The position numbers and the translations under genes were made by a program. DNA of 64,000 nt, from NCBI GenBank assembly GCA_903822075.1, contig CAIJNK010000004.1, positions 12,661 to 76,660 on the forward strand, read 5' to 3'. Shown piece after piece: positions 1,933 through 60,988 of the stretch. This DNA comes from an uncultured bacterium. Its GTDB lineage: Bacteria > Patescibacteriota > Minisyncoccia > Phycocordibacterales > GWA1-40-21. The notes under the pieces were generated by a model. The model had not been told where the DNA came from. It saw only the letters and a program-made list of their open reading frames with translations, and searched no databases. The number at the start of each line of letters is the position of its first letter. The first letter of the stretch is position 1.

Positions 1933-2979
1933 TTACCCAATTAAAGAGATAATAATCCCCAAGCTAGCGCAAATGATACCGAGGATCCAGTAACGCATGA
2001 CTACTTTGGTGGCGGGCCAGCCTTTAGCTTGAAAATGGTGATGAAGCGGTGCTACCAAAAATACTTTTTTACCATTACGGTATTTTTTAGACAAAAGTTG
2101 AATGATACTGGAGGCGGAGGAGATAACCAAAGGGAAGGCAATGATCGGTAAAATCAAAACTTGTTTGGTGAGAAAGGCCACCACCACAAGAGTTATTGTG
2201 AGAGCCATTGTCCCCGTCTCGGACATATAAAATCTGGCCGGTGGGATATTAAACCAAAGGAAGGCCAGTAAGCCGCCCACTAGCACAAAACAGAACGCTG
2301 CTAGGTCGATTTGTTGCTGAAGTAGAGCGATTAAGCCATAAGAACTAAATATAATTCCAAATACGCCACCAGACAGACCATCCAAACCGTCAATGACACC
2401 GCCCGAGTAGGTACCAAGCATGACGACTACGAAAAAGACAATAAAAAGCCAGCCGGCATCCCAGACGCCAACAAACGGAATAATAATATCGGTCTTTCCT
2501 AATTTAAAAAAGAACCACCAAGCGCCAACAAGAGAAATTAGAAAAACAGCCAGTAATCTTTTTTTTGATGATAAGCCACCGGCCTTCTGGTCATAATTTT
2601 CGGTGACACTCATGTAGTCATCAACCAAACCCACCAAAGCACCAATAATCAGGGTAAATATTGGTAGCCAAGTCTGATTACGACTAAGAAAATTCAGCTT
2701 GGACATCACTGGACCGTCAATGAGTGCTCCCAGCCAAAAAATAATTATGGTGATAATAGCACTGGCCCAAATAACAATTCCACCCATGCGCGGTGTTTTC
2801 TTCTCTTCATCGTTATGCAGACTCTGAGTAATGGAAGCGACACCGCCATCGGTGGCCACGACAACGCTTTTCTTCTTCCACATCTTATTTTTGTAGAGAA
2901 AATTACTCACCAAAGGTGTGATTAATATTCCAACAATGAAAGCGATGGTCGTCGGTACGAATATTTTTACTATATCCAT
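1933..2979 (-). CDS. mraY: phospho-N-acetylmuramoyl-pentapeptide transferase
   Basis: 348 aa polytopic membrane protein; MraY motifs (DDYMS..., VAPLHHHFQAKGW); dcw context. Confidence 0.85.
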   Translation of the reverse strand: MDIVKIFVPTTIAFIVGILITPLVSNFLYKNKMWKKKSVVVATDGGVASITQSLHNDEEKKTPRMGGIVIWASAIITIIIFWLGALIDGPVMSKLNFLSRNQTWLPIFTLIIGALVGLVDDYMSVTENYDQKAGGLSSKKRLLAVFLISLVGAWWFFFKLGKTDIIIPFVGVWDAGWLFIVFFVVVMLGTYSGGVIDGLDGLSGGVFGIIFSSYGLIALLQQQIDLAAFCFVLVGGLLAFLWFNIPPARFYMSETGTMALTITLVVVAFLTKQVLILPIIAFPLVISSASSIIQLLSKKYRNGKKVFLVAPLHHHFQAKGWPATKVVMRYWILGIICASLGIIISLIG

Positions 2980-2983
2980 AATT

Positions 2984-3955
2984 TTATTTGTCCATTATAA
3001 CATTATTTATTAAACTGGTGGTATCCACAAAGCTATCTCTGGCTCCTAAGACAACATTAATCAAGGTGACATTATTACCCATATCAGTGAGCAGAACCAA
3101 ATTTTTTAAAGCCAGATCGGTACTCCCTGTCTTGCCACCAATTATGTCATATTTAAGACCCTTTTCTTGCAGTAGCTTGTCAGTATTTGTAACCACCTTG
3201 CAATAGTTGCTTATATCACAAAAATTGAAGACGCTGTTTGTGGTTATCCTAAAAATTTCTGGGTGGTGGTTTTTTATGTATAGCAACAGTTTGGCCAGAT
3301 CTGTGGCTGTTGAGACGTTCACTCCAAGGGTTCCACCAGGCAGACCAGTTGGGTCTAAACCAGTAGGACTAAAAAAAGTGGTACTGGCCATACCAAGCGA
3401 CTTGGCCTTGGAATTCATTTTGGCAATAAAGTTATTTTCACCCAACGTGCTACTAAGCAAACGGGCCGAATCATTATCGGAAGAGATAAGGGCGTTGGCA
3501 AGCAGGTCCTGCACTTTATAAACTTTGTTAGTCTCTAATACAAAAGCACTTTCTTCTCGACCGATATAATCGCGAGTGGCCGTTACGTCAGTATCCAAAC
3601 GTAAATTTTCTAAAGTCACGACCGCCACCATCAATTTTGTGACACTGGCGATGGGTAAGCTAAGGTCAGCCTCCTTAACCGCAAGGATTTTTCCTTCCCC
3701 GTTGGAATTAAGGGCAAGTGTCAAGTAAGACTTAGCCGTCACTTCGGGTGAAGTGGTAGCTATTAGGTGGATTTTGTCTAGTTTCTCTTTTACTTCGCGG
3801 TCCAATTGAATTTTTTCTACAGCCTTTTTTAACGCCTCAGTCCGATTTTTGTTATTAAGACTGATAGAAAATAACAGAATACTGATAAAGAAAAATAAGA
3901 GGACAACAATGAGCAGAGCCAGGAGTTTTTCTTTTTTGCCGTTCTCAAAGGGCAT
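2984..3955 (-). CDS. D-alanyl-D-alanine carboxypeptidase (serine-type, PBP5-like) with N-terminal membrane anchor
   Basis: SxxK active site (ASVTKLM), SDN motif (SSDNDSA) and KTG motif (GGKTGST) in order, as in S11 peptidases. Confidence 0.75.
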   Translation of the reverse strand: MPFENGKKEKLLALLIVVLLFFFISILLFSISLNNKNRTEALKKAVEKIQLDREVKEKLDKIHLIATTSPEVTAKSYLTLALNSNGEGKILAVKEADLSLPIASVTKLMVAVVTLENLRLDTDVTATRDYIGREESAFVLETNKVYKVQDLLANALISSDNDSARLLSSTLGENNFIAKMNSKAKSLGMASTTFFSPTGLDPTGLPGGTLGVNVSTATDLAKLLLYIKNHHPEIFRITTNSVFNFCDISNYCKVVTNTDKLLQEKGLKYDIIGGKTGSTDLALKNLVLLTDMGNNVTLINVVLGARDSFVDTTSLINNVIMDK

Positions 3956-4623
3956 TAGACGGTTGGTACATTAATTTCCTCAGCGTCATCCACTTGCTGC
4001 GGATTTATTAAATCAGCTGATTTCTCTGGAGCGGGCTCGGCGGGTTTCTCTTCAGTTAGGTTTTGCTCAAATTCTGCTTTTACTTTTTCGTATTCCGGTA
4101 ATTCTTCTATTTTTGAGACACCTAAAAATTGGAGAAGTTCAAAGGTTGGACGATACAAGAAACTGCGCGCATCCTTTGGATTAGAAATTCTTTCTACTAG
4201 CCCCCTAATCTGTAAGTTGCGTAAAATAAAGTTTGATTGAACACCGCGAATATAATCGATCTCCGCTCTGGATATTGGCCCTTTATAGGCAATAACAGAG
4301 ATGGTTTCCAGGCCGGCCTTGCCCAAGTCTCGGACCAGCTCTTCCTTGGTTAGCCTCTCAATAATATGGGATAGTTTGGCGGCGGTGCCAAGCATAACTT
4401 CATCATCTTTGTAAATCAACTCTACTCCCCTTTCCATTATTTTTTCCTTCAAAACTTCCAAGCCAGTCAAAATTTCCTCTTCTTTTTTTCCCAAACTGGC
4501 TGCCAATTTCTTGATGGATTGCGGCTCGCCTTTCCAGAAAAGCACGGCCTCCAACTGATTATCTAATGACAATTCTTCCATAATTTGGCAATTATAGAAC
4601 ATTTCTTGGATAAATGAAACCAT
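3955..4623 (-). CDS. scpB: segregation and condensation protein B
   Basis: 222 aa; two winged-helix ScpB repeats (…SRAEIDYIRGVQSNFILRNLQIRGLVER…); acidic C-terminal tail. Confidence 0.8.
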   Translation of the reverse strand: MVSFIQEMFYNCQIMEELSLDNQLEAVLFWKGEPQSIKKLAASLGKKEEEILTGLEVLKEKIMERGVELIYKDDEVMLGTAAKLSHIIERLTKEELVRDLGKAGLETISVIAYKGPISRAEIDYIRGVQSNFILRNLQIRGLVERISNPKDARSFLYRPTFELLQFLGVSKIEELPEYEKVKAEFEQNLTEEKPAEPAPEKSADLINPQQVDDAEEINVPTV

Positions 4624-4715: not shown

Positions 4716-5153
4716 ATGAAGACAAACAAGACTGGTTTTACGTTGGTGGAATTATTGATCATCTCCGTGGTAATTGCGGTCCTGGCAGGGTTTGCTGTTC
4801 CCGCCCTTCGAGAGATGCGTGAAAAGGCTCGACTGGACCAAGAACAGGCGCTAACAAAACAGCTCACGCCGGAGCAAACAGAAGCCAAGCGTCTGGCGGA
4901 CCTGGAACAGCAAAAGGTTGCTGCGGAGCAGGCCATGGAGGCTAAGGTGAATCAGGTTCAGAATTGTGGGCACGGGGCCTACTATTTCCCTTTTGCGGAC
5001 ATGGGCGAGTTTCTTAGCGTCCGTAACGCTTTCATGGATAAACATTCCGGCATGAAGTTCGTGGGTACGGAACCGAATATTGTCGAGCAAGGTTGGGGCG
5101 ATGGGCGCTATGGCATTACCGTTGGTCATGTTGTTTTCTTTCAAGAAGAATAA
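4716..5153 (+). CDS. type IV pilin-like (prepilin-type N-terminal cleavage/methylation) protein, paralog 1
   Basis: MKTNKTG|FTLVELLIISVVIAVLAG: class III leader ending in G, then F-T-L-V-E (Glu5) and a hydrophobic helix; Q/E/A-rich linker; C-terminal GHGAYYFPF domain. Confidence 0.75.
   Translation: MKTNKTGFTLVELLIISVVIAVLAGFAVPALREMREKARLDQEQALTKQLTPEQTEAKRLADLEQQKVAAEQAMEAKVNQVQNCGHGAYYFPFADMGEFLSVRNAFMDKHSGMKFVGTEPNIVEQGWGDGRYGITVGHVVFFQEE
4881..5039 (+). repeat. 159 bp direct repeat, copy A (inside pilin-like gene 1)
   Basis: About 96% identical (6 mismatches by eye) to 6033-6191; encodes EAKRLADLEQQKVAAEQAMEAKVNQVQNCGHGAYYFPFADMGEFLSVRNAFMDK identically in both genes. Confidence 0.85.
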
Positions 5154-5165
5154 ACGGAGGACGAG

Positions 5166-5612
5166 ATGAAGACGAAACAGGGTGGTTTTACGTTGGTGGA
5201 GATTATGATTGTGTTGGCGATCATCGGCTTGCTGGCGGCAATGGCTATTCCGGCTTTCGTTAAGGCGCGCGAAAAGTCACAGCAGTTGGTGGAGGAGAAC
5301 AGGCTGGCGCATTTGACACCGCAACAGCGAGAGAATGAAAATCTGGTCAAACTGGAAGAGCAAAAGCTCGCCCAGCAAAAAACGACCGAGCAAAAATTGA
5401 GTCAGATTCGTCCGTTTGGCCACAACATCTACGAGTTTCCTTTTGTGGGGGACGAGTATCGGTTTATGTTGTCGGCGTTCCAAGATAAGCACCCCGAGCT
5501 GCGTTTCCATAGTGCCGAGGGTGAGGTTGTGGGAGTTCAGACTGGCAGCACAACTGCCTATGGGGCAACGGCGAGTTACACCGTCCATTTCGATGATGAG
5601 GTCAAGCAGTAG
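5166..5612 (+). CDS. type IV pilin-like protein, paralog 2
   Basis: MKTKQGG|FTLVEIMIVLAIIGLLAAMAIPAF prepilin signature; same architecture as paralog 1; SD GGAGGA 6 nt upstream; only 12 nt from gene 1, so the two are co-transcribed. Confidence 0.75.
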   Translation: MKTKQGGFTLVEIMIVLAIIGLLAAMAIPAFVKAREKSQQLVEENRLAHLTPQQRENENLVKLEEQKLAQQKTTEQKLSQIRPFGHNIYEFPFVGDEYRFMLSAFQDKHPELRFHSAEGEVVGVQTGSTTAYGATASYTVHFDDEVKQ

Positions 5613-5638
5613 CTACAAAGACGGTGTCTTGAGTACAA

Positions 5639-5670
5639 CCCGAACGTTTGCAGACGTTCGGGTTTTTTAT
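5639..5670 (+). terminator. rho-independent terminator after pilin-like gene 2
   Basis: cccgaacgt-ttgcag-acgttcggg (9 bp stem) followed by tttttt. Confidence 0.7.
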
Positions 5671-5697
5671 TTCCCAATTTCTACACTTAAACAAACA

Positions 5698-5726
5698 TTG
5701 ACTTTTAGTAAATATATTAGTACAAT
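5698..5726 (+). promoter_or_regulatory. sigma70-like promoter TTGACT-17-TACAAT for pilin-like gene 3
   Basis: TTGACT 5698-5703, TACAAT 5721-5726. Confidence 0.5.
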
Positions 5727-5780
5727 AGGCAGAGATGTGTTTAGGGATATTTGAAACAAGGACAGGAGAAAAAGGGTAAA

Positions 5781-6308
5781 ATGAAGACAAACAAGACTGG
5801 TTTTGGGTTGGTTGAGTTGTTGGTTGTTATCGGGATGCTCATGAGTCTCCTGGCTATTGTGATCGGAATTCACGAGTTCAGGTTACACCGCGCTGCCCAG
5901 CGAGAGAAGGAAACGGAAGCGAAAGCGGAACAGGTGCCACTAACACCAGAGCAATTGGAGAACCGGCGTTTGGTCGAACTTGAGGAGCAGCAAGTGGCCG
6001 AGCAACAAGCAAAGGCGGCGGCGGAACAAGCTGAAGCCAAGCGTCTGGCAGACCTGGAGCAGCAAAAGGTTGCTGCGGAGCAGGCTATGGAGGCTAAGGT
6101 GAATCAGGTTCAGAATTGTGGGCACGGTGCCTACTATTTCCCTTTTGCGGACATGGGCGAGTTTCTTAGTGTCCGCAACGCTTTCATGGATAAGTATCCT
6201 AGTATGAAGTTTCAAGCGACGGAACAGCATGTGATTACATACGAGGCTGGACGAACATATTCTTACAGCTATACCGTTGGTCACGTTATATATTTCAAGG
6301 AAGAGTGA
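5781..6308 (+). CDS. type IV pilin-like protein, paralog 3 (longer coiled-coil linker)
   Basis: MKTNKTG|FGLVELLVVIGML; C-terminal half near-identical to paralog 1; ATG at 5781 preferred over the TTG at 5751. Confidence 0.7.
   Translation: MKTNKTGFGLVELLVVIGMLMSLLAIVIGIHEFRLHRAAQREKETEAKAEQVPLTPEQLENRRLVELEEQQVAEQQAKAAAEQAEAKRLADLEQQKVAAEQAMEAKVNQVQNCGHGAYYFPFADMGEFLSVRNAFMDKYPSMKFQATEQHVITYEAGRTYSYSYTVGHVIYFKEE
6033..6191 (+). repeat. 159 bp direct repeat, copy B (inside pilin-like gene 3)
   Basis: See copy A. Confidence 0.85.
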
Positions 6309-6420: not shown

Positions 6421-7155
6421 TTAATTATAATGCGGTACGCCGGTTTGTTGAGTCTCAATTTCAATATCGGCAAATTGGTCATTCTGCCGGACATCCACAA
6501 TCCCCTGTTTGACCAATTCCAACATTGCCAAAAAGCTGATGATCACATTCACCCTTTCTTCTTTGCCCACTTTGGCAAACTCTCTAAAAGAAAGTTTGAT
6601 GCTACTTTGAATTCTTTTTGTTAAATTCCCGATCATCTCTTCCAAACTGATCACTTTTTTAACGGTTGCTTTGGGAATATTTTCCACCAGTTTTGGCAAC
6701 GCTTTAATGACTGAAATAATAGCCGTCAGCAAGTTTTCTTTGGTCATTGTCTGATCCGGCGAGAAAACCGGCACGGCCTTTCTGGGTTCGGCGGCAAAAA
6801 TAATATCTTTGCCGAATGAGTTTTTAATATGAACGCTTAATTCTTTAATTCGTTGGTATATTTTTAGCCTTCTTTCCAAATCACTGACATCATGCTGTTC
6901 TTCCTCGGATAGGTTTAGGTTTGGCAGCAAGGATTTGGATTTGATTAAAAGCAAAGTAGAGGCAATGACCAAAAAATCCGCGCTCTGGGCAATGGGAAAT
7001 TTTTCCTGGCTTTGAATATAAGTTATATAATCATCGGCCACCCTTGATAAAGCAATGTCGTTAATGAATAATTTCCGCTTTTCAATCAGACTTAACAGCA
7101 GGTCCAGTGGACCCTCAAAAAATTCGGTTTTAATCTGAAAAGCGGTGTCAGACAT
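6421..7155 (-). CDS. scpA: segregation and condensation protein A
   Basis: 244 aa; N-terminal ScpA block FEGPLDLLLSLIEKRKLFINDIALSRVADDYITYI. Confidence 0.8.
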   Translation of the reverse strand: MSDTAFQIKTEFFEGPLDLLLSLIEKRKLFINDIALSRVADDYITYIQSQEKFPIAQSADFLVIASTLLLIKSKSLLPNLNLSEEEQHDVSDLERRLKIYQRIKELSVHIKNSFGKDIIFAAEPRKAVPVFSPDQTMTKENLLTAIISVIKALPKLVENIPKATVKKVISLEEMIGNLTKRIQSSIKLSFREFAKVGKEERVNVIISFLAMLELVKQGIVDVRQNDQFADIEIETQQTGVPHYN

Positions 7156-7172
7156 AACAGTAATTATAACAT
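7156..7172 (-). promoter_or_regulatory. extended -10 element (TGTTATAAT) 7 nt upstream of the scpA ATG; putative leaderless promoter
   Basis: Minus strand reads tttATGTTATAATtactgtt-ATG; no SD; the same ATGTTATAAT-N6-ATG arrangement recurs at 33204-33221 and 45463-45480. Confidence 0.45.
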
Positions 7173-7182
7173 AAATGCTAAC

Positions 7183-7230
7183 GGGTCGCTCTCGCCATTT
7201 AACGCGGACTAATCATTCCGAGAGCAACCC
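7183..7230 (-). terminator. terminator-like hairpin downstream of aspS (12 bp GC-rich stem, long loop, weak U-tract)
   Basis: gggtcgctctcg ... cgagagcaaccc with one mismatch; lies between the aspS stop and the scpA promoter. Confidence 0.35.
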
Positions 7231-7241
7231 GCTAGCTTTCA

Positions 7242-8761: not shown

Positions 8762-9748
8762 TCAATAAATATCAACCCCCACCGCCTTTCTTACCATATC
8801 CATCTTCTTTTCCGCTCGCATAGAAGCCCTTTGGCCGCCAGCTTTCAGGATATCAAAAACGGTGTCCAAATCATGTACCAGCATCTCTCTACGCTCTCTC
8901 ATTGGCCTAATAAAGGCCTCCAAAGCCTCAATTAGCCCTTCCTTGGCCTCTTTATAGCCCAGGCCACCATTTGTGTATTTCAGGGCTAAAATTTGCCTAT
9001 CCGCGTTGTTTAGAAGAAGCCTATGAATATTATAAATATGGTTGGTCTCGGTATCTTTAGGCTCGGCTACGCCCTTGGAATCGGTCGGGATACTCATGAC
9101 CGCCTTCTTGATTTCTTCGTAAGTGGCAAAAAGCGGGATGACGTTGCCATAACTTTTGCTCATTTTTCGGCCATCGGTACCCGGCACGGTTTCCACATTT
9201 TTTAAAATCAGTGGTTCGGGTAATTTAAATATTTCAGAATTAAAAACGTTATTAAATTTCTGGGCGGTGTCGCGGGCATATTCCACGTGTTGTTTTTGAT
9301 CCTGGCCTACGGGCACCACATCCGCATCTTGCAGTAAAATATCCGCCGCCATCAATAGCGGATAATCAAAAATCCCCACATTTATTTCTTTGTTTTTGGC
9401 CTCCGCGTCCTTGTAAGCATGGGCGCGCATCAGATATGGCATGGTGGTAATACAATTGAAAATCCAATTCAGTTCATGCACTTGTGGCAGATCAGACTGT
9501 TTGAAAAGTACTACTTTTTTAGGATCAAGACCGATAGCCAGATAATCCAAAGCCACATCGATTATTCCTTGGGACATTTGCTCTTTATTCTGAACGGTGG
9601 TCACGGCATGATAATCGGCAATAAATACGTAGCTTTCATACTCGTTTTGTAACTCGACAAATTGCTTCATGGCGCCAAAATAATTACCGATATGCACTCG
9701 GCCCGTCGGTTTTACTCCGGATAACAGAATTTTCTTTGAATTTGACAT
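8762..9748 (-). CDS. trpS: tryptophanyl-tRNA synthetase
   Basis: 328 aa class I aaRS; HIGH-like GVKPTGRVHIGNYFGA, KMSKS (KMSKSYGN). Confidence 0.85.
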   Translation of the reverse strand: MSNSKKILLSGVKPTGRVHIGNYFGAMKQFVELQNEYESYVFIADYHAVTTVQNKEQMSQGIIDVALDYLAIGLDPKKVVLFKQSDLPQVHELNWIFNCITTMPYLMRAHAYKDAEAKNKEINVGIFDYPLLMAADILLQDADVVPVGQDQKQHVEYARDTAQKFNNVFNSEIFKLPEPLILKNVETVPGTDGRKMSKSYGNVIPLFATYEEIKKAVMSIPTDSKGVAEPKDTETNHIYNIHRLLLNNADRQILALKYTNGGLGYKEAKEGLIEALEAFIRPMRERREMLVHDLDTVFDILKAGGQRASMRAEKKMDMVRKAVGVDIY

Positions 9749-9766
9749 GGGTTTATAATAGCAGAA

Positions 9767-12383: not shown

Positions 12384-13150
12384 TTAATATCCTTTTTGTC
12401 ATGTACATAGTCTTTTATTTTTTTATGATAATAGCACCAAAATGAGTCTTCTTCTGATTCCTTTGGTAAAAGTCTAACAATTAGAGGTTTAATTCCAAAC
12501 TTTTCTTTTAGAAATGACATGGCGGGTACTATTATATCTAAAGTTATTTTTTCCTCCTCCTCATTTGCAAGAAAATTCTCAAATAATATGCCATTTCGTA
12601 AAAATAGAGATAGAAATCTGGGATAGTATAGATTTGGAGTTTTACCGTTTCTTTTAACCCAACTTGAAATATCCTTGATATTAAATTTAATCTGTGGAAA
12701 CTCCTCGCAAAGAATGTCATGATGTAAATCAACAAGTTTTCTGCCGGCAACGGTTTCAACATCTTTGATTGTCTTTCTGTCATTTTTGTTGAAATCAATT
12801 ACTTTTTTTGGAACACAAATCTTCCCTCCGTTTTTATCTGTACCGGTATGAAAAAACATCTTGCCCAAATGATGTTTTAGACTGTTAATTGAAATATACT
12901 TATCCTCCAAATATTCTGATAGAATAAACTCCAGGCCTACATCATTTGCTCGATCCTCAAATCTCAATAGTTCAAAATTTAAACTAGAAATATGACGTGC
13001 TAAATAAGCCTTCGGGCTATCTTGTAAGAAATCCGGTATATCCCCTCCTAAAAATTCTTCAACCCTCTTTTGTAATCCTTTATCTTCCCATCGCTTCTTG
13101 ATTTCATCTTTTGCCTCCTCAAGCGGCGTGTATATGTCATCTAAATTCAT
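12377..13150 (-). CDS. hypothetical protein (257 aa)
   Basis: Long ORF with coding-like composition; no recognisable motif. Confidence 0.4.
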   Translation of the reverse strand: MNLDDIYTPLEEAKDEIKKRWEDKGLQKRVEEFLGGDIPDFLQDSPKAYLARHISSLNFELLRFEDRANDVGLEFILSEYLEDKYISINSLKHHLGKMFFHTGTDKNGGKICVPKKVIDFNKNDRKTIKDVETVAGRKLVDLHHDILCEEFPQIKFNIKDISSWVKRNGKTPNLYYPRFLSLFLRNGILFENFLANEEEEKITLDIIVPAMSFLKEKFGIKPLIVRLLPKESEEDSFWCYYHKKIKDYVHDKKDINC

Positions 13151-13187
13151 GAAGGATATTATATATCTTTTTATGTTATTAGCAAAG

Positions 13188-14548: not shown

Positions 14549-15802
14549 TTATTGCTCATTCCTTCTAATATCAGCGGCATTTTTATGTCCAAATAGACCT
14601 TCAACTTCCGCTAGTATTGAGGCTATCTTAATAAGGTCTTTTGAGGCTTCTTTTGTAATTTTTTGATAGGTTAATACCTTTACGTATTCTTTGACCGATA
14701 GTCCGCCAGTATATCTGGCACAGCCATTAGTTGGCAGGGTGTGGTTTGGACCTGAACAATAATCTCCAAATACCTCCGCTGAGTATTCGCCAATAAATAA
14801 GGATCCGTAATTCTTTAACTTTGGTATAATTGTATCAGGATTTTTTATCTGAAGCTCTAAATGTTCCGGAGCTCTTTTGTTTGCAATTTCAATTGCCTCG
14901 TTGATGTTATCAGCCAGAATAATTGCACCATTTTTATCGATTGATTTTTTAGCAATATCTCTAGTCTTAAGGGCTAAGAGTTGTTTTTCTATACTCACAG
15001 AAATCTTCTCAGCTAATTCCTTGCTAAAGGTTATTACTTCTGCTCTCGAGCTTGGGTCATGCTCAGCTTGAGCTAATAAATCAGCGGCAATAAAATCTGG
15101 ATTCCCAGAATCATCAGCAATAATTAAAACTTCGCTTGGACCAGCAATAAAATCGATTCCCACAATACCATATACTTCCTTCTTGGCGGCTGCGACATAT
15201 TGATTTCCCGGACCAACTATTTTGTCTACCTTTGGAATAGACTCGGTTCCATATGCCATTGCGCCAATTGCCTGAACCCCTCCAACATTAAATATTTTAT
15301 CGGCTCCGGCGACATCGGCAGCAACAATCGTTACGGGGCATATTTTAGGTGAGCAGACAATAACCTCACTTACGCCGGCAACTTTAGCGGGAATTACTGT
15401 CATCAACGCTGTCGATGGAAGAGGATATCTTCCTCCAGGCACATAACAACCAATTTTTTCAATCGGTACTATTCTCTGGCCACAGATTACACCGGCATTA
15501 TTAATTTCAAAATCCTCTAAGCTTTTTAATTGATTTTTGGCAAAATTCCTTATATTTTTAGCGGCAAACTTTAAGGCGCTAACAGTTTTCTTATCTATCT
15601 GAGAATACGCCTTATTTATCTGATCTTTTGTCAGTTGAAAATTAGTAATTTCAAAATTATCAAATTTTTTCGTATATTCCTTTACGGCAATATCTTTTCT
15701 CTTTCTGATGTCATCAAGTATCTTTTTTACAGATTCAACATCTTTGACGACAGCGGATTCAAAGAATTCTGAATTTAAGTCTTTGGAATTTACAATTTTC
15801 AT
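14549..15802 (-). CDS. hisD: histidinol dehydrogenase
   Basis: 417 aa; HisD blocks [34 protein letters not shown], and [30 protein letters not shown]. Confidence 0.85.
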
Positions 15803-15842
15803 ATACTTTATAATATGTATTATATGCTATCTATATTTTTTA

Positions 15843-17945: not shown

Positions 17946-18848
17946 TTACAAATTGATTATCTTATAAAAGAAATCCATAAATTCCTGACTTTTGACTGCT
18001 TCAGCGTAGTTGATCATATTCCTTCCAGGAACCACCGAACCGGCCTTGTCACCTTCTGTTTCTATGGTAAAGTTTCCATTTTTAAAATTAAGAAAATCTC
18101 CGAGAATCGCCGATACCGCTAAGGGATCGTAAAGTTCAAACTGGCGATTATTTGGATTGCCAAAAAATGCGTACCAATTTTTTATCGCCTTAATAATAAA
18201 TTTTCCGGAACAGGATTTGGACTTGATATTCGTCAAATCCTTGATGTCTATAAGGCATTTGTGAGTCACGTCCAAGGGTATTAGGTTAACTTCTCTAAAA
18301 TTATCAAAAATCATTTTTACAGATAACGGATCTTGGAAAAAATTGAACTCGGCATATTTCGTGGAATTACCTGGGACGTTAATTGCTCCACCCATTAAGT
18401 ATAATTGGGATATTTGTTTTGCTATTTCGGGGTATTTTATAAATGCCTTGGCTATGTTTGTCGGTGGAGCTACGGAAATGATAACCAGATTATCACCATA
18501 TTTTTTTGATGATTCAACTATAAAATCTACTGCATCTTTCGCTTCCTGGCTTCTGGTGACTGGAAGATCAACGTTGCAAAGCCCATCGTTTCCGTGATAA
18601 TCAAAAGCTTCAACAAATTGCTTTGACGATAAAGGTTTGGCAGAACCTTTGTATACTGAAACATCTGATCCTAATAATTCCAAGATAGCAAGGGTATTTT
18701 TAGTCGTTTGAGTCACTCCGACGTTCCCCCCACAAGTGGTAATTCCAATAATCTGCGACCCCAAGGTCTTTGATAGTAGAATGATCGCCAAAGCATCGTC
18801 AATGCCAGTGTCCACATCCAAAATAATCTTTTTGTCCTTACTAAACAT
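17946..18848 (-). CDS. inosine-uridine-preferring nucleoside hydrolase (IU-NH family)
   Basis: N-terminal fingerprint ILDVDTGIDDALAI (DxDxxxDD); ORF-track N-terminal extension rejected because it runs through the tRNA; start at MFSKDKK (18848). Confidence 0.75.
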   Translation of the reverse strand: MFSKDKKIILDVDTGIDDALAIILLSKTLGSQIIGITTCGGNVGVTQTTKNTLAILELLGSDVSVYKGSAKPLSSKQFVEAFDYHGNDGLCNVDLPVTRSQEAKDAVDFIVESSKKYGDNLVIISVAPPTNIAKAFIKYPEIAKQISQLYLMGGAINVPGNSTKYAEFNFFQDPLSVKMIFDNFREVNLIPLDVTHKCLIDIKDLTNIKSKSCSGKFIIKAIKNWYAFFGNPNNRQFELYDPLAVSAILGDFLNFKNGNFTIETEGDKAGSVVPGRNMINYAEAVKSQEFMDFFYKIINL

Positions 18849-18907
18849 GATGAATATTATATTATGATAATAAAAAAGCGGCAAGTCTAGGACTTGCCGC
18901 TGAGGAA

Positions 18908-25648: not shown

Positions 25649-25664
25649 ATTTACAATTAAACAC

Positions 25665-26291
25665 ATGGAGAAAATACAAGTATTGATGATTCACGGTGGT
25701 ATGACTTTCAAAAACAAAAAGGACTATTGGAAGTATTTGGGTGTCAAAAGACTTGGTTTTGAAAAGAAAATCAGCTGGACAGGGGACTATATTGATAAGG
25801 CTTTGGGTAATAGATTTGAAATGATCAAACCGCGCATGCCTCAACAAGATGATGCTAAGTATACTGAATGGAGGATCTATTTTGAACGACACCTTCCATA
25901 TTTAAGAAATAACTATATTCTCATTGGTACCTCACTTGGCGGTATTTTCTTGGCCAAGTATCTGTCCGAACATAAACTACCTGAAAAGGCATTGGCGACA
26001 TATTTAGTCTGTCCACCTTTTGACGACAGTCATTCGAATGAAGATTTAGCTGGCGGGTTCAAACTTAAGTCGGATATTTCAGCCCTTGAAAATAACTCAA
26101 AAAAACTTTGTCTGATGTTTTCTGCGGATGATGAATGTGTTCCGATTTACCATGCCGAAAAATATCGGGGGAAATTACCAAATGCCAAAATTATGATTTA
26201 TAAAAACAAGAAAGGACACTTCAGGGTATCAAGGTTCCCTGAAATCGTACAACTGATCAAAGAAGACGCCAGGAAAGCCTTAAAAGCTTAG
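25665..26291 (+). CDS. alpha/beta-hydrolase-fold serine hydrolase (YdeN/RBBP9-like)
   Basis: Starts …VLMIHGG; nucleophile elbow GTSLGG; about 200 aa. Confidence 0.5.
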   Translation: MEKIQVLMIHGGMTFKNKKDYWKYLGVKRLGFEKKISWTGDYIDKALGNRFEMIKPRMPQQDDAKYTEWRIYFERHLPYLRNNYILIGTSLGGIFLAKYLSEHKLPEKALATYLVCPPFDDSHSNEDLAGGFKLKSDISALENNSKKLCLMFSADDECVPIYHAEKYRGKLPNAKIMIYKNKKGHFRVSRFPEIVQLIKEDARKALKA

Positions 26292-29476: not shown

Positions 29477-29869
29477 TTATTCTGAGGTAGTGCTTGCAAT
29501 GGATGTAGAACACGACTCACCGTCTGGAATATTCGTGTCGTTGCACAGGGTGTAAGAGCATTTGGGTTCGTTTGGCGCACAAGACAGCTCTTCACCACAA
29601 CCGATTTTTTCAATAGTCTGCTCACAGGCGTAGATACTGTAGGCGGCCTTACTGATAGTTTTGTAATCAGAGGCGTCAGCCGGTACACAGGTAGGATCGG
29701 TGCCGTCGCAAGTGACAACATCACGATGGAAGCAACTTTCTGTCTGAGGATCGCAAGACACTTCGGCCACAATCTGGTAATCTTTCACTATAACTATACG
29801 CCAAAAAGTAACACCGACGGAACCAAGGATAAGGAGGATCAAGATAGTGTAAAAGATTTTGTTAGCCAT
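29477..29869 (-). CDS. small membrane-anchored cysteine-rich protein (130 aa, 12 Cys)
   Basis: N-terminal anchor IFYTILILLILGSVGVTFW, then a Cys-rich ectodomain (CDPQTESC…CDGTDPTC…); sits between dnaJ-like and the ABC exporter. Confidence 0.45.
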   Translation of the reverse strand: MANKIFYTILILLILGSVGVTFWRIVIVKDYQIVAEVSCDPQTESCFHRDVVTCDGTDPTCVPADASDYKTISKAAYSIYACEQTIEKIGCGEELSCAPNEPKCSYTLCNDTNIPDGESCSTSIASTTSE

Positions 29870-29883
29870 GACAATATTATATA

Positions 29884-32903: not shown

Positions 32904-33203
32904 TTAAAAAGTAGAAGGCGCGCGTGTTGGCTGACTCATTACAAAACTAAAATCTTTTGAAAAATTAGAAACAAAATTAGAAAAAATAGATTTGATTGGC
33001 AAAAATTCCACCGGACTTTTCACGCACGGCAAACATAACGTTTCTGCCTTCACCAGCTTTTCACCCAATATCTTTCCGGAAACCGCCTTAGCCACTATTT
33101 GCCCATTCCTTTCCACCAGCTCAAACACCAAAAGCGCCCAAGCCCCGTTTGGCAATTGTACGGCCTTTTCTATGTATTTTGGCTGTTTCTGGATGGCTAA
33201 CAT
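32904..33203 (-). CDS. hypothetical protein (99 aa), probably leaderless
   Basis: ATGTTATAAT-accgtt-ATG arrangement directly upstream; no SD. Confidence 0.4.
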   Translation of the reverse strand: MLAIQKQPKYIEKAVQLPNGAWALLVFELVERNGQIVAKAVSGKILGEKLVKAETLCLPCVKSPVEFLPIKSIFSNFVSNFSKDFSFVMSQPTRAPSTF

Positions 33204-33221
33204 AACGGTATTATAACATAT
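33204..33221 (-). promoter_or_regulatory. extended -10 (TGTTATAAT) 6 nt upstream of the ATG of 32904-33203
   Basis: Same motif as at scpA and the ATP-cone gene. Confidence 0.4.
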
Positions 33222-33680: not shown

Positions 33681-34275
33681 ATTTCTTAAACTCCCCCACC
33701 ACCACTTTTGGCGCAATAATGATTTTGCCGTTCATGGTGTAACCTTTCTTTTTTATTTCTTTGATCAAGCCATCTTCTTTTTCATCAGTCACCGGCACAA
33801 CCTCCTCGGCCACATGCAATTTAACATCGAAACTGTCCCCTATTTTTGGCACAAATTCTTTTAGTCCATTTTCGTCAAGGATCTTGACAAGCTGCGAATG
33901 AATATATTCCACCCCCACCCGCCAATTTTGTGGCACGGCATTCCACTGCTCTTTATTCATAAAAGCCATATCAAAGCTCTCCAGCACGGTGAGCATTTCT
34001 TCCAACAAATTTTCATTGGCAAATTTTATATAATCTTTTTTTTCTTCATCCGCTCTTTTCTTATAATTCACAAAATCCGCCCGCTCTCTCTGCCAGCCGT
34101 TCATATATTCATCTTTCTCCGCTTGTAGTTTCTTTATCTTCTCTTTCAACTTGGCAATTTTCTCTTTCGGATCACTCATATTGTCGCTATCAATATCCGC
34201 ATCATAAACCACCTCAGAGTTGTCTTCTTCTGGTTTGGTATCCTCCTTTTTTACTTCGTCATTATCATTATTCAT
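33679..34275 (-). CDS. grpE: nucleotide exchange factor GrpE
   Basis: Coiled-coil N-terminus; GrpE signature RERADFVNYKKR; C-terminal beta domain. Confidence 0.8.
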   Translation of the reverse strand: MNNDNDEVKKEDTKPEEDNSEVVYDADIDSDNMSDPKEKIAKLKEKIKKLQAEKDEYMNGWQRERADFVNYKKRADEEKKDYIKFANENLLEEMLTVLESFDMAFMNKEQWNAVPQNWRVGVEYIHSQLVKILDENGLKEFVPKIGDSFDVKLHVAEEVVPVTDEKEDGLIKEIKKKGYTMNGKIIIAPKVVVGEFKK

Positions 34276-34343
34276 AAGTGCATTATAGCAAAATTAGCAA
34301 AATAATCAAAAATCCAACTTGTGGCTGGATTTTTGTTTGTAAT

Positions 34344-39737: not shown

Positions 39738-40928
39738 TTATATTTTATAAAGTTTATCCAAAAACATTAATCCTAATTTATAAACGGTATCGGCAATGTC
39801 AGATGACGACTTTATCTTTTTATTTTCAATAATCAACACTTTAAAATCCCGTTTTTCGAGCTTATCTTTTAAGAACGGAATCAAATCGCTATTGGCAATC
39901 AAAAAAATACATTCCGGCACATAGATTTTATCCTTAAGACTGTCTAGAACCTCAAAAATCTTGCTTAACCAGTTTCGAGCAGCACTGTCCATCGCCATGG
40001 CCAATCTCATGGCCGCTAATTGGTCATTACTTTTTGCGGTCTGCATGCTAATCATAGAATCGGCAATTTCTGGAGTGACTTTTAACTCCTTTGATAATTC
40101 GCGTATGAAATCGTTACGGCCCAAAGGGATGGAAGCGGCACTAATCATGACGTTATCCTTAATAATGGAAATATCGGTCATTTCCTCACTAATATCAATA
40201 TGGATAAAATCTTTTTTTTGCGGAAATAGATCCTGAATAATCGAGAAAGTTGATAAAGACAAAGAGTGACACCAAACGTTTTTAACATTGAAAGTTTTAG
40301 AAACGGCTGAATCGATAGTAAGGAGAATATCTTCGGGCACGACACTGAAGAAGACAGAAAGTTCTAAATCCTTTGCTTGCTTACCATAAAAATTATCCAC
40401 AGCATAACCATTTACTTTTACTTGAATTATCTTTTGTTCAATAATTTTTCCAACTTTGGATATACCCGCTTGAAATTGTTTTTCTTGCTCCTTTATCAAC
40501 TTACTCAAATAGCTTTCGGTAATTTTAATCGGTTTCTGATCTTTTATTCGGATCGTTTTAGTCTGAGAAACGCTCCAAGGGGAAGAAAAAACATAAAAAA
40601 CGCGATCGATTCTTATCTTTCGACCCGTACTAGCCTCAATTTTTTTTAACCCCTCAGCTTGAATCCTGGCGGCCAAGGTCGTCAAGGAAGATTTCAGCAA
40701 TTCCAGATGTTTTGGGACAGAAATTTCATCCTGAAAAGGAATTATTTCTTTGCTGTAATATGTAACATCCTCACCCTCTTTTTCTGAAAAATTGATTATT
40801 CCGCCCGCCACGCTTCCGCTGCTAATATTAAAAACCAAAGAATAGCTACCTTTATTTCTTTTTCCAAAAGAAAAGAACGACATGCTTACATTATAATACA
40901 CATCATTTGTAACCGCAAATTTTGGCAT
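39738..40928 (-). CDS. divergent actin-fold ATPase of the FtsA/PilM type
   Basis: SLVFNISSGSVAGGII (phosphate-1-like), DISEEMTDISIIKD, IPLGRNDFIREL resembling FtsA/PilM motifs; start moved to MPKFAVT because the upstream 22 codons run through a terminator hairpin. Confidence 0.35.
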   Translation of the reverse strand: MPKFAVTNDVYYNVSMSFFSFGKRNKGSYSLVFNISSGSVAGGIINFSEKEGEDVTYYSKEIIPFQDEISVPKHLELLKSSLTTLAARIQAEGLKKIEASTGRKIRIDRVFYVFSSPWSVSQTKTIRIKDQKPIKITESYLSKLIKEQEKQFQAGISKVGKIIEQKIIQVKVNGYAVDNFYGKQAKDLELSVFFSVVPEDILLTIDSAVSKTFNVKNVWCHSLSLSTFSIIQDLFPQKKDFIHIDISEEMTDISIIKDNVMISAASIPLGRNDFIRELSKELKVTPEIADSMISMQTAKSNDQLAAMRLAMAMDSAARNWLSKIFEVLDSLKDKIYVPECIFLIANSDLIPFLKDKLEKRDFKVLIIENKKIKSSSDIADTVYKLGLMFLDKLYKI

Positions 40929-43733: not shown

Positions 43734-44549
43734 CTAACCAAATAAAGTATCTTTTTCGTCTGCTGATTTCTTAATCTTTTCCTGTTTCACCAAAGCTTGG
43801 AGACATTCCCCGGCGGCCTTACGATAATTGCAATAATCACAATCTGAATTCGGTATAGGTGCATTTGGTAAATCTAAACATTTTTTCATCTCAAAAATTG
43901 TCTTCTCAATCCAGTCAGTTTTACCGGTATAAGAGATGATAGTAATGTCGAAATCAAGCTTGCCGTCAAAAGCCTCTCGATCCGTCTTGCCATTTACATA
44001 AACAAAGTAACCGGTATTCGAGACTTTATAACCATTTTGCTTAAAAAGCCACTGATATATTTCCATCTGTCTTTTGTATTGAATTTTCCATTCATCATCA
44101 AGCGTGATTTCTTCCTCCTTACTGGTTGCTTTATAATCAACAACAATAAGTTCACCTTTGGAATTTATCCAAATATCATCAACCCCTCCGCGAAGTATAA
44201 TATTTGTCGGTTTATGCAAAAATGAAATACCGCGTTTTAAGGCATCACGCCATTCTTCCATTTTAGGATCGTCATAGGGCACAGCCTCGATACCGTATGT
44301 TTTCATTAGCGGATGTGCAGTATGCCGAGCCCGATGAATATCAAACTCTTTCTTCATCAAAAAGTCTACCGCGTTATTCAGGGTCAGCGGAAAAGAAGCC
44401 GGTCGGCCGACTCCGCATTTCTGATCCAAATAAAAACAACGCTCACAGTTCAAAAATAAATCCAACTTTGATCTGGATAAGCGGTGTGGGTCCTTGGAAT
44501 TAGAATCATACAAACCTCGCGTCCTTTTGGCTTTATAATATTGACTCAT
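43734..44549 (-). CDS. Cas4-family PD-(D/E)xK nuclease with 4-Cys Fe-S cluster (standalone; no CRISPR array in window)
   Basis: N-terminal Cys (LFLNCERCFYLD); motif II GGVDDIW, motif III ELIVVDYKATS, QxxxY (QYKRQMEIYQW); C-terminal CDYCNYRKAAGEC. Confidence 0.75.
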   Translation of the reverse strand: MSQYYKAKRTRGLYDSNSKDPHRLSRSKLDLFLNCERCFYLDQKCGVGRPASFPLTLNNAVDFLMKKEFDIHRARHTAHPLMKTYGIEAVPYDDPKMEEWRDALKRGISFLHKPTNIILRGGVDDIWINSKGELIVVDYKATSKEEEITLDDEWKIQYKRQMEIYQWLFKQNGYKVSNTGYFVYVNGKTDREAFDGKLDFDITIISYTGKTDWIEKTIFEMKKCLDLPNAPIPNSDCDYCNYRKAAGECLQALVKQEKIKKSADEKDTLFG

Positions 44550-45462
44550 TGTTTTCTGGCTTTATGTTAAGAGAGGTCTCGGCTTTTTTATTAATTTGGG
44601 CTAGTTCGTCAGGACCAACACATTCCTTGCATAAGTCGTAAACTTCCTTAATGACAGACTGGGCTTTCAAATCATCAAAACCATAACTTTTAAGTAGACC
44701 AAAATCCCCCAACTGCTTGGATAAGACAATGTCGTTAGCCAAAAACATTTTCTTCTCGCTCTGATTCAAAGTGGTCAACACCGTCAAAGGTACCAAGTTC
44801 AGTCCTTCAATCAAGTGATGCAGGTTCTTGTCATGCGGATAATTCCAGCCCACCATGTTCAGATGCACACATTCGCCATACTGAATGGCGGTGGAAGAAA
44901 AATTCGTATTGGTTATCAGCATGCCTCTGGTCAGCTTCCTCTCTTTTCCCCCGAATTTAAAAACGGTATTCTGCAAATCCTCAAACCGGGCCTTGATATA
45001 AAGTGCCACCTTCAGATCAGAGTGTGCGCCAAAATCCGTGTGAAATTTGGCTTCGGTCATGATGAGTTCCTTATCATTAAAAGCCACCACATCTATCTCA
45101 TGCGGAACGCAGGTGCCAAGCACAATCTGATCTGTGAACGTCTGATAGCCCTGTGCCTTGAATATCTCCGCCACAAATTTTTCAAAAGGAAAACCGGACG
45201 GTCCAAGCTCGGCAATCGCCCGTTTCAGGGAATAGCGCAAAGCCACTGGCCGCTGATGTTTACGAAGTAGGGTAAAAGCCTGTCGGTAAATTTCTTTGGT
45301 GGTATGTCCTTCTTCGGTCAAATCACTCTCGATTTTTTGAACAATCATGTCTGCTGTCTCCTTATCTGTGCCGATTTTCCGCAAAGAACGCAAAAGCTTC
45401 TCCCTATCAAAAAGTTCCCTTGTCCCGTCGGCTTTGATTATGTAGATTCCTTTTGGTGGCAT
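44533..45462 (-). CDS. ATP-cone domain fused to Mrr-like (PD-(D/E)xK) restriction-endonuclease domain plus uncharacterised C-terminal region
   Basis: ATP-cone: IYIIKADGTRELFDREKLLRSLRKIG…IVQKIESDL. Mrr_cat-like: FEKFVAEIFKAQGYQTF…EIDVVAF…EAKFH. The 17 nt overlap with the Cas4-like gene implies translational coupling; start at MPPKG. Confidence 0.6.
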   Translation of the reverse strand: MPPKGIYIIKADGTRELFDREKLLRSLRKIGTDKETADMIVQKIESDLTEEGHTTKEIYRQAFTLLRKHQRPVALRYSLKRAIAELGPSGFPFEKFVAEIFKAQGYQTFTDQIVLGTCVPHEIDVVAFNDKELIMTEAKFHTDFGAHSDLKVALYIKARFEDLQNTVFKFGGKERKLTRGMLITNTNFSSTAIQYGECVHLNMVGWNYPHDKNLHHLIEGLNLVPLTVLTTLNQSEKKMFLANDIVLSKQLGDFGLLKSYGFDDLKAQSVIKEVYDLCKECVGPDELAQINKKAETSLNIKPENNESIL

Positions 45463-45480
45463 TAGGAGATTATAACATAA
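45463..45480 (-). promoter_or_regulatory. extended -10 (TGTTATAAT) 6 nt upstream of the ATP-cone/Mrr gene ATG; putative leaderless promoter
   Basis: Minus strand reads ttATGTTATAATctccta-ATG, embedded in the 3' end of mnmA. Confidence 0.45.
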
Positions 45481-49258: not shown

Positions 49259-50293
49259 TTATTTTACAATCTCGTACTTCCCTTCCTTACTCTTTTTAAA
49301 GAATTTTGGATTCTGCAAGTTGATGACAATGGTGTTTTCCTTTACATAACGTTCTTTTAAGACTTTCTGAATCACCTCCTGCTTGGTCATTGGACCGTAT
49401 TTCTCAATGAGCTTCTTGATGACATCTTTGACCACACCGCTCATATAACCCCATTCGGACAAAGCATACAAACCGCGTCCCACCAGAACAAAACGAGGAT
49501 CTTTTATCAGTTCATTGTGAGTGGTTGCCACGTGTGCCTTAATTTTGAAAACTTCCGTAATGATTTTAGCCACCTCGCGGAAATGGATGGGCGAACCATG
49601 TCTTCTAATGACCAAATAAGCATAATCTCTCATACCTTTGGTACTAATATTTGAAGACTCGGTCTTACCCCATTCACCCAAAGTATTCTTACCAATCTTC
49701 TTTGACAAGGCTAACCACCTTTTTGCTATTTCCTCATTCTTGTATTTTTCAGAGACATCTTCTAGATGACCGAGGAAGGATTTGATAATATCCGGTTCGG
49801 ACATGAGATCCTCGCTCTTTAAAGTAGCGTAAAGCTTCCGCAACGCCTCATGAACTTTTTCCGATAAGGAACTGTCAATAAACCAGCGGTGTTTAAAATC
49901 CTCGTCTTCCTTGATTTTATTAAAAGGATGACCAACAACCAAAATAAAATTTATATGGCTTTGAATGGAGGCGTCAGTAGATATATAATCCAAAAGGTCC
50001 TGCTCAACGACAATACCGCCAAGAGAATGAATAATTTTTTCAACTTCGTCAAAAGTAGGTTTTTCCTCAAAATATTGCTTGGATTTCCGAATAACGGCCA
50101 AAGCGTGGTTTTCAATCTGCCTGACACGCTCACGAGTTATGCCGTATGTCTTGCCAATAGCATCCAAGGTCATTGGCTCTGAGTCCTTACCCAAACCATA
50201 GCGCTTGGTCATGACATCGCGAGACCGTTGGGAAAGGGCACCGATCAGTCTTTTGCTAACTTGCTTTGGTTTAAAATTTATTGTTATTGACAT
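49259..50293 (-). CDS. putative transcription factor: sigma-70 region-4-like HTH (N-terminal) plus HARE-HTH-like domain (C-terminal)
   Basis: MTLDAIGKTYGITRERVRQIENHALAVIRK resembles sigma region 4.2; C-terminal …DPRFVLVGRGLYALSEWGY resembles the HARE-HTH of the RNAP delta subunit and ASXL proteins. Confidence 0.45.
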   Translation of the reverse strand: MSITINFKPKQVSKRLIGALSQRSRDVMTKRYGLGKDSEPMTLDAIGKTYGITRERVRQIENHALAVIRKSKQYFEEKPTFDEVEKIIHSLGGIVVEQDLLDYISTDASIQSHINFILVVGHPFNKIKEDEDFKHRWFIDSSLSEKVHEALRKLYATLKSEDLMSEPDIIKSFLGHLEDVSEKYKNEEIAKRWLALSKKIGKNTLGEWGKTESSNISTKGMRDYAYLVIRRHGSPIHFREVAKIITEVFKIKAHVATTHNELIKDPRFVLVGRGLYALSEWGYMSGVVKDVIKKLIEKYGPMTKQEVIQKVLKERYVKENTIVINLQNPKFFKKSKEGKYEIVK

Positions 50294-59825: not shown

Positions 59826-59899
59826 ACGTTCGCTAGTCTGAGATGACTAGCTCAGTATGATTGAGTTTAAATCCTCCTGCCTTCGGCACATCAGATCTT
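59826..59899 (-). other. two consecutive stable hairpins at and after the ychF stop codon (terminator-like but no U-tract)
   Basis: 13 bp perfect inverted repeat tgattgagtttaa…ttaaactcaatca enclosing a UUCG-capped sub-hairpin, followed by gctagtc-atctca-gactagc. Confidence 0.35.
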
Positions 59900-60988
59900 A
59901 AACTCAATCACATCGCCGTCTTTGACAACATAGTCCTTGCCTTCAGTTCGGATCAGTCCTTTTTCTCGGGCATTGCCGTATGAACCAGCCTCCAGTAATT
60001 TATTCCAAGGAACTATTTCAGCTCGCACAAACTTTTCTTTGAAATCCATATGGATAGCGGTGCCCGCTTCCGGTGCCGTCCAACCATTTTTAATGGTCCA
60101 AGCTCTGGTCTCGTCCTCCCCAGTCGTAAAATATGTCAGCAACCCCAGGAGATCATAACCGGCTTTGATTAAATCATTGATACCATCGTCCTTTACCCCC
60201 AAACCTTCACGCATCTCTATTTTGTCATTTCCTTCCATATCCTTCAATTCATTTTCAATTCCTGCGTCCACAATGACATATTTGGACTCCGTCTCTTTAA
60301 AAAAATTCAGGAGATTCAAATACCGCTCATCATTCAATTCATCCAAATTTTTCCCGCCACTTTTCTTATTCAAAACATACAGGATCGGCTTCATGGTGAG
60401 TAAACAAAGTTTCCTAGCTTCCACCAATTCGAATTCATCAAGATCTGCAATTTGAGCCAGCTTGCCCATCTCCAGAACATCTTTTATTTTTAATAACGCC
60501 GAATTTTCAATAACAGCGACTTTACTACCTTTTTTCATTTCACTGACCAGACTCTGTAAGCGTTTGGATACACTTTGCATATCAGCCAAAATAAGCTCCA
60601 AGTTAATGGTTTCAATATCGGATAGAGGTTCCACCTTATTGGACACATGAATTACGTTACCATCCTCAAAAATACGCACCACTTCGGCAATAGCATCCGT
60701 TTCGCGGATATTGGTTAAAAATTTATTGCCTAAACCCTCTCCAGCCGAGGCCCCCTTCACCAACCCAGCAATATCCACAAACTCCACGGCCGCCGGAATA
60801 GTTTTGGCTGACTTGGAGAATTCAGACAGTTTGGAGAGACGTTCATCCGGCACGGCCACCACCCCGACCGACGGATCAATGGTACAAAAAGGGTAATTCT
60901 CACATGGCACACTTTTTTTAGTCAGTGCGTTAAACAAGGTGCTCTTCCCCACATTTGGCAGACCAACAATTCCAATGGATAATGACAT
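59891..60988 (-). CDS. ychF: ribosome-binding ATPase YchF (Obg-like GTPase family with TGS domain)
   Basis: G1 GLPNVGKST; C-terminal TGS domain (…AGTAIHMDFKEKFVRAEIV…). Confidence 0.85.
   Translation of the reverse strand: MSLSIGIVGLPNVGKSTLFNALTKKSVPCENYPFCTIDPSVGVVAVPDERLSKLSEFSKSAKTIPAAVEFVDIAGLVKGASAGEGLGNKFLTNIRETDAIAEVVRIFEDGNVIHVSNKVEPLSDIETINLELILADMQSVSKRLQSLVSEMKKGSKVAVIENSALLKIKDVLEMGKLAQIADLDEFELVEARKLCLLTMKPILYVLNKKSGGKNLDELNDERYLNLLNFFKETESKYVIVDAGIENELKDMEGNDKIEMREGLGVKDDGINDLIKAGYDLLGLLTYFTTGEDETRAWTIKNGWTAPEAGTAIHMDFKEKFVRAEIVPWNKLLEAGSYGNAREKGLIRTEGKDYVVKDGDVIEFKI

Follow-up and report, generated by a model that had tools for sequence, protein, structure and literature searches.

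Leaderless genes of bacteria are recognized by the position of their promoters, and a -10 box lying 6-8 nt from the start codon is their textbook signature; the mechanism discussed here is therefore not new. In group C genomes of the GeneMarkS-2 classification, the leaderless first genes of operons have a Pribnow box at a distance of 6-8 nt from their starts, and genes led by ribosome-binding sites coexist with them. Of 4769 bacteria, 1028 fall into this group; most of them are Actinobacteria and Deinococcus-Thermus, and 25-50% of the transcripts are leaderless (PMC6028130). Transcription start sites across bacteria centre 7 bp downstream of the -10 element, and TRTG is an extended -10 common in Firmicutes (PMC12641261). 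A full-text literature search combining leaderless expression with taxa of the Candidate Phyla Radiation (CPR) returned incidental mentions only, with no paper describing leaderless expression in CPR, and a PNAS commentary on Patescibacteria contained nothing about promoters. Here we describe a short promoter-like motif in a 64-kb stretch of DNA (64,000 nucleotides, referred to as the window) from an uncultured CPR bacterium. CPR/Patescibacteria are known for small genomes and reduced ribosomes.

The decamer ATGTTATAAT is present in four copies in the window, all on the minus strand, which is also home to nearly all window genes. Checked for frequency, the motif stood out clearly: only 0.17 copies are expected, all four lie on the coding strand, and four or more were seen in none of 100 dinucleotide-preserving shuffles of the window. 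The initial annotation had placed the same decamer 6-7 nt before three ATG codons, and direct reading gives spacers of N7, N6 and N6. Before scpA (7153-7172, minus strand; gene 6421-7155, with a Pfam match), the sequence is ATGTTATAAT-tactgtt-ATG (N7). Before a gene for a 99-aa protein (33201-33219, minus; gene 32904-33203), it is ATGTTATAAT-accgtt-ATG (N6). Before a gene for an ATP-cone/Mrr-like nuclease (45460-45478, minus; gene 44533-45462), it is ATGTTATAAT-ctccta-ATG (N6). The fourth copy, which had been overlooked, precedes a family-4 glycosyltransferase gene (2977-3003, minus, with the decamer at 3003-2994; gene 1933-2979) in the form ATGTTATAAT-ggacaaataaaatt-ATG, with a spacer of N14. 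All four read (t/a)ATGT-TATAAT. Two of them extend over the region around the stop codon of the preceding gene. The TAA that ends mnmA (45472-45470) sits within the TATAAT of the Mrr-like gene promoter, and the fourth decamer falls in the last codons of a D-Ala-D-Ala carboxypeptidase gene. If the fourth decamer fires, it would produce a leader of about 7-8 nt. Glycosyltransferase orthologues carry a -10-like string at N10-16 or none, and together with the misfit of the N14 spacing this led us to reject the fourth copy as a member of the strict leaderless class. Also rejected was the possibility that the decamer is a repeat or the end of a mobile element, because the copies have no flanking similarity. 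When the window was scanned for Rfam families and tRNAs, tRNA-His was the sole match, and the decamer sites gave none.

The decamer belongs to a larger set of similar boxes. The initial annotation had mentioned a related box before alaS, which indeed reads gTGTTATATT-ttaccct-ATG (N7; 43087-43068, minus). Besides the fourth decamer, it had missed the DUF8128 and grpE sites and about eight further TATAAT-like boxes separated by 6 or 7 nt from a start codon. The DUF8128 gene has gTGTTATAAT and 7 nt before its ATG (49208-49189, minus), and grpE has tTGCTATAAT and 6 nt (34273-34291, minus; TGCTATAAT-N6-ATG at 34290-34273). A spacer of 6 nt is also found behind TGCTATTAT at trpS (9746-9763, minus) and behind TATAAT at the genes for a 381-aa protein (40881-40895, minus) and a 130-aa protein (29867-29881, minus), all with ATG starts. 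At a histidine kinase gene (63868-63886, minus), ATGTTAGAAT is followed by 6 nt and GTG, a codon that is a poor leaderless start in E. coli. TATAAT and a spacer of 7 nt lead up to the ATG of a gene for a 257-aa protein (13148-13163, minus) and to that of a nucleoside hydrolase gene (18846-18861, minus), in the latter case right behind the terminator that follows tRNA-His. Spacers of 7 nt before ATG are found likewise for TATTAT at the histidinol dehydrogenase gene hisD (15800-15815, minus), which is preceded by a terminator at 15879-15852, and for TACAAT at a hydrolase gene on the plus strand (25652-25667). The string TGnTATAAT has nine copies on the minus strand and two on the plus strand, and six of the nine minus-strand copies lie 6-7 nt from the start of a long ORF.

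The spacing of these boxes is sharply defined. For ORFs of at least 90 aa, we went through the sequence before the first ATG offset by offset and counted TAnnnT hexamers that differ from TATAAT at no more than one position. In the window, such hexamers peak only at spacers 6 and 7 (10 of 60 minus-strand first ATGs), compared with about 0.5% per offset for other ATGs. The hexamer matches that open long ORFs in the window are nearly all at true gene starts, every one with a spacer of 6 or 7. Among 61 curated window starts, about 15 have a TATAAT-like hexamer at exactly N6 or N7. The count was extended to the window plus 15 related CPR/Patescibacteria loci (282 kb, 274 ORF starts). These 15 species-level relatives (GTDB genomes) are metagenome-assembled genomes from freshwater lakes, assigned to Candidatus Paceibacteria, Paceibacterota or, by an automatic label, Saccharibacteria; matches to the ScpA protein were also found on ENA and Logan metagenome contigs. 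In the combined set, 48 of the 274 starts have the hexamer at N6 or N7, against a background of 0.94% (p = 7e-45). By offset, spacer 6 reaches a frequency of 12.4% and spacer 7 one of 5.1%, with a background of 0.3-0.6%. Offsets 4, 5, 8 and 9 in the same upstream regions have 0-1.5%, giving an odds ratio of 10.4 for spacers 6 and 7 (p = 4e-15). Thus, the -10 motif stands at a fixed short distance from starts both in the window and in its relatives.

Alignment of the 48 sites on the hexamer shows T (54%), R (71%), T (71%), G (67%) and any base, followed by TATAAT, together with a weak T-T-(T/G) at -23 to -21, where a -35 element with a 17-bp spacer would lie. The TG one base before the hexamer, commonly preceded by T-R, is seen in this logo and in all four decamers. 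A pyrimidine occupies position -1 before the ATG in 31 of the 48 sites, fitting a Y(-1)R(+1) start. The TRTGn and the weak -35 are promoter features and not ribosome-binding or translation signals, and the logo is that of a predicted sigma-70 promoter with a TRTGn extended -10. ATGTTATAAT fits within this logo: its A corresponds to R, and at n this genome prefers the T that the decamer has next to TG. As judged from the alignment, the decamer is the top-scoring, consensus form of the putative housekeeping (sigma-70/sigma-A type) extended -10 of this organism, t-R-T-G-n-TATAAT. At the three decamer sites with N6 or N7, no more than two of six positions match TTGACA at a 17-bp spacer. This explains why a scan for the sigma-70 consensus that requires a -35 element did not report the decamer sites. 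Lacking a usable -35, the decamer promoters would need the full extended -10 consensus, and therefore the same ten bases would recur.

A side observation concerns a protein with a sigma-factor domain. A gene at 49259-50293 (minus) encodes a 344-aa protein with sigma-70 region 4 (residues 17-70) and a HARE-HTH domain (residues 222-281); region 2 and region 3 gave no match in it. The gene is conserved and syntenic in relatives L019-L022. Its TGCTATACT box, with a leader of about 38 nt lacking a Shine-Dalgarno (SD) sequence, is conserved in three of these relatives, and in L022 the box lies 6 nt from the ATG.

The following scheme may account for these observations. At the three decamer sites and about 12 further window genes, 6 or 7 nt separate the end of the -10 element from the start codon. 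RNA polymerase would initiate about 7 nt past the -10, preferably at a purine, which would place +1 on the A of ATG at an N6 spacer and one base off at N7. The transcript would begin at the A of the ATG or within one base of it and yield a leaderless mRNA, to be translated without an SD sequence. We infer the start point and the leaderless mode of translation from the motif, its spacing and statistics, its conservation, the gene starts and the upstream hairpins. Taking these together, we consider it very probable that the ATGTTATAAT-type boxes are extended -10 promoters placed for leaderless transcripts. The initial annotation had already read the decamer in this way, and the reading gains from the peak at spacers 6-7, the TRTGn and weak -35, the hairpins, and the orthologue positions described below.

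The neighbourhood of the boxes is consistent with this scheme, in which the decamer promoters would either follow directly on a terminator or lie within the last part of the preceding gene. Stable hairpins, with z-scores of -4.5 to -7.4 in folding against shuffles, lie directly upstream of the promoters of scpA, alaS, grpE and the DUF8128 gene, and the starts at 18848 and 15802 have terminator-like sites in front of them. Terminator, promoter and ATG are packed into approximately 40-90 nt. The strongest hairpin lies between aspS and the scpA promoter (7177-7236, minus; -36.4 kcal/mol, z = -7.4, none of 200 shuffles equally stable) and is read as the aspS terminator. It is unusually long, with only a short U tract behind it. 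The 99-aa gene promoter has no significant hairpin upstream (folding z = -0.66), and this site is not terminator-flanked. Of about 15 N6/7 sites in the window, about 10 follow gaps of at least 37 nt, several with terminator hairpins. Four N6/7 starts (45462, 29869, 26744 and 9748) have at most 18 nt of intergenic space, and their promoter is embedded in the 3' end of the upstream gene. A/T-rich sequence around stop codons may in part have given rise to the TATAAT at these four sites. The N6/7 genes may also be transcribed by read-through from the genes before them or from a promoter further away.

Several kinds of translation starts coexist in the window. The initial annotation had stated that the three decamer genes lack an SD sequence, and we found no GGAG-like motif before them or before alaS, and no room for one at these four sites. 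GGAG, GAGG and AGGA are missing from all N6/7 sites; GGAGG or GAGG stands 4-7 nt before about ten other starts. Among the SD-led starts are those of two pilins (4716 and 5166), hisS (20377), a 97-aa ORF (33320) and a 103-aa ORF (43475), with GGAGG or GAGG 4-6 nt upstream. These are the genes for which SD sequences had been noted before, and the conclusion then drawn, that the organism appears to use both modes, is supported. Our census suggests that about 25% of starts would be leaderless and about 15-20% SD-led, the remainder having neither signal. Starts with neither signal make up more than half of the window starts; their upstream regions are A/T-rich and they include operon-internal genes. 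At least four of the minus-strand starts (58949, 53850, 37935 for rpsM and 36419 for rpoA) have a TGnTATAAT-like box 22-33 nt upstream, followed by an A/T-rich leader without SD. This layout of a box with an SD-less leader is conserved in L019-L022. In the syntenic loci, infA, rpsM, rpoA and the sigma-region-4/HARE-HTH gene keep TGnTATAAT with leaders of 17-38 nt without SD. The window also encodes a YchF/Ola1 GTPase (59891-60988, minus). A 2025 paper on CPR ribosome biogenesis found that YchF is retained in CPR and tied it to the translation of leaderless mRNAs (PMC12641178).

The abundance of starts with neither signal raises another explanation, namely that the box is a non-SD, A/U-rich ribosome landing site on leadered mRNAs, of the kind found in GeneMarkS-2 group B. 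More than half of the window starts have neither an SD nor an N6/7 -10 and their upstream sequences are A/T-rich, so that many non-SD messages must be initiated in this organism; several of the boxes also lie in very short intergenic gaps. However, a landing site has no need of T-R-T-G two bases upstream, of TTG another 17 bp further up, of an invariant T at hexamer position 6, or of a spacing sharp to one base. The box is missing from the operon-internal genes rpsK, rpsD, rplQ and rpsI, and hairpin terminators stand directly before many boxes. We regard a landing site as improbable, and promoters placed for leaderless transcripts remain the preferred reading.

Comparison with related genomes shows which features of the boxes are maintained. 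ScpA orthologues have -10 elements of the forms TGcTACAAT-N6, TGtTACAAT-N6, TGtTAGAAT-N7, TGcTATAAT-N6, TGcTATACT-N6 and TGcTATAAT-N8, and in one relative, with 36% protein identity, the exact decamer precedes scpA at N6. In three relatives, scpA abuts aspS. Relatives of the 99-aa gene have TGTGcTATAAT-N6 (L018), TGTTATAAT-N6 and TATAAT-N6 (the last two in L020 and L021). The -10 is kept in 5 of 5 syntenic loci both for the DUF8128 gene (N6-8) and for alaS (N6-9), and the 381-aa gene has TATAAT-N6 in 4 of 5. Spacers in grpE relatives range over N6-10, including N9-10, and the spacing of the Mrr-like gene is not conserved among relatives (N3, N6, N9, N16 and N29). In L007, AAGGAGG stands in front of the same scpA ATG, replacing the promoter. 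Overall, position and promoter-defining bases are conserved and the exact decamer is not.

This pattern bears on the suggestion, made in the initial annotation, that the decamer may be the binding site of a specific regulator, that is an operator controlling the scpA, 99-aa, Mrr-like and glycosyltransferase genes beside or in place of its promoter role. Four identical 10-mers against 0.17 expected would be consistent with such a regulator. By a rough calculation from the logo, about 20-25 promoters should contain about 1-3 exact copies, which puts four at the upper end, and 13 relatives have an invariant copy within scpA as well (see below). On the other hand, the four sites show no similarity beyond the decamer, which is neither a palindrome nor a repeat. 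The 48-site logo accounts for every decamer position. Orthologues vary n and the third, fourth and fifth positions, where promoters tolerate change, and keep T-G-n-T-A-n-n-A/n-T and the spacing; their conservation does not extend beyond core promoter needs. No shared regulon is apparent either, since the ATGTTATAAT-led and other N6/7 genes have unrelated functions (scpA, Mrr-like nuclease, alaS, trpS, grpE, hisD, nucleoside hydrolase, histidine kinase). A dedicated regulator is accordingly very unlikely, and this part of the initial annotation is not upheld. Because orthologues keep the position and not the letters, the genes are unrelated and hairpins lie upstream, leaderless promoters are well supported by the sequence and a dedicated regulator is not. 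Finally, chance, whereby A/T-rich intergenic DNA and TAA stop codons yield functionless TATAAT-like strings, can be dismissed almost entirely: the window has about 41% G+C and two decamers overlap stop-codon regions, but the copy number in shuffles, the restriction to the coding strand, the near absence of the hexamer at offsets 4, 5, 8 and 9 and the maintenance of the arrangement across species with 36-88% protein identity all speak against it.

The scpA gene shows two additional features. At its end in the window (6421-6435, minus), the sequence CCG CAT TAT AAT TAA encodes P-H-Y-N-stop. In relatives, the scpB ATG lies 6-7 nt past the -10 at the scpA end: TATAAT-taaaaa-ATG in L007, TATAAT-taaaaac-ATG in L011 and TACAAT-taaatt-ATG in L003. 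The last two scpA codons thus appear to double as the -10 of a putatively leaderless scpB in these relatives. The two genes are contiguous in L004 and L011. The window keeps the TATAAT-TAA at the scpA end, but scpB (3955-4581) is no longer adjacent; three SD-led type IV pilin-like genes (4716-6308, plus) are inserted between them, and a separate TATAAT lies 9 nt upstream of the scpB ATG at 4581. The second feature is an exact ATGTTATAAT about 605 nt into scpA in L003-L016 (for example, L004 10608-10617), where the codons for N-V-I-I read AAT GTT ATA AT(A/T). It is invariant at synonymous sites in the 13 relatives, and neighbouring codons vary. The equivalent position in the window (approximately 6540-6550) reads AAT GTG ATC ATC and has no decamer. 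The scpA-internal decamer may act as a promoter within the gene, about 165 nt ahead of scpB, or may reflect no more than coincident codon choice in genomes related to one another.

The gene starts behind these promoter positions are borne out by the N-termini of homologues. There is no in-frame start further upstream for scpA and the 99-aa ORF, and 12 scpA orthologues start at the same Met. The 99-aa protein has no Pfam match. A metagenome scan with it yielded one relative only, from a lake metagenome and 52% identical, which shares the N-terminus MLA(I/L)QKQP and confirms both the gene and its promoter. Orthologues of the 381-aa protein have the N-terminus MSFFSF in common. The Mrr-like gene has an ATG and a GTG further upstream, yet all 14 homologues begin MPPK.GIYIIK at the ATG at 45462, and the ATP-cone profile match begins at residue 6. 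The public call for an identical protein (P0001) is 286 aa long, starts at the TTG at 45393 and is 23 residues short, so that it loses part of the ATP-cone domain and with it the Pfam match. In L019, the 381-aa gene is called six codons too long. Both calls are start miscalls at predicted leaderless genes. This suggests that gene callers tuned to SD sequences misplace starts in these CPR genomes.

A broader reading is that TRTGn-TATAAT leaderless initiation is the main way of starting a transcription unit in this freshwater Paceibacteria-like CPR lineage, perhaps as part of genome compaction through promoters placed in the last codons and stop of the upstream gene; we see this as evenly poised between true and false. 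Examples would be the TAA of mnmA, which falls within the -10 of the Mrr-like gene, and the scpA end CAT TAT AAT TAA, which would act as the scpB -10 in relatives. If the compaction reading is true, promoter and coding sequence would be co-constrained at such places. Widespread leaderless expression would extend to the Candidate Phyla Radiation, this uncultured CPR/Patescibacteria lineage would rank among the heavy users of leaderless mRNAs, and systematic start miscalls in annotations of CPR metagenome-assembled genomes would be explained. The main value lies in the correction of gene starts in CPR genomes and in a promoter model: t-R-T-G-n-TATAAT-N6/7-ATG is usable as a combined model of promoter and start, and may assist the design of expression tools for cultivable Patescibacteria.

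Among known systems, three show similarity to the arrangement described here. In GeneMarkS-2 group B (Bacteroidota type, A-rich), as in many window genes, upstream regions are A/T-rich without an SD or an N6/7 -10. The decamer sites differ from group B in carrying TG, a -35 and upstream terminators, and the box is mostly missing from operon-internal genes. The TRTGn or "-16 region" promoters of Firmicutes share the t-R-T-G-n-TATAAT, and the decamer sites have no recognizable -35. TRTGn promoters of Bacillus normally precede SD-containing leaders, whereas the element here lies close enough for the discriminator to end at the start codon. The closest system is group C, represented by Mycobacterium, Streptomyces and Deinococcus. 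The similarities are a Pribnow box 6-8 nt from the start, no SD, SD-led genes alongside, and a share of transcription units between roughly one quarter and one half, which in our case comes from a census of starts. High-GC actinobacteria have a degenerate TANNNT -10. In contrast, the predicted element here is a full TATAAT with TRTGn, and its host is an A/T-rich uncultured member of the CPR/Patescibacteria and not one of the Actinobacteria or Deinococcus. By sequence-level criteria, the arrangement would thus represent the known leaderless architecture of group C in an uncultured CPR lineage.
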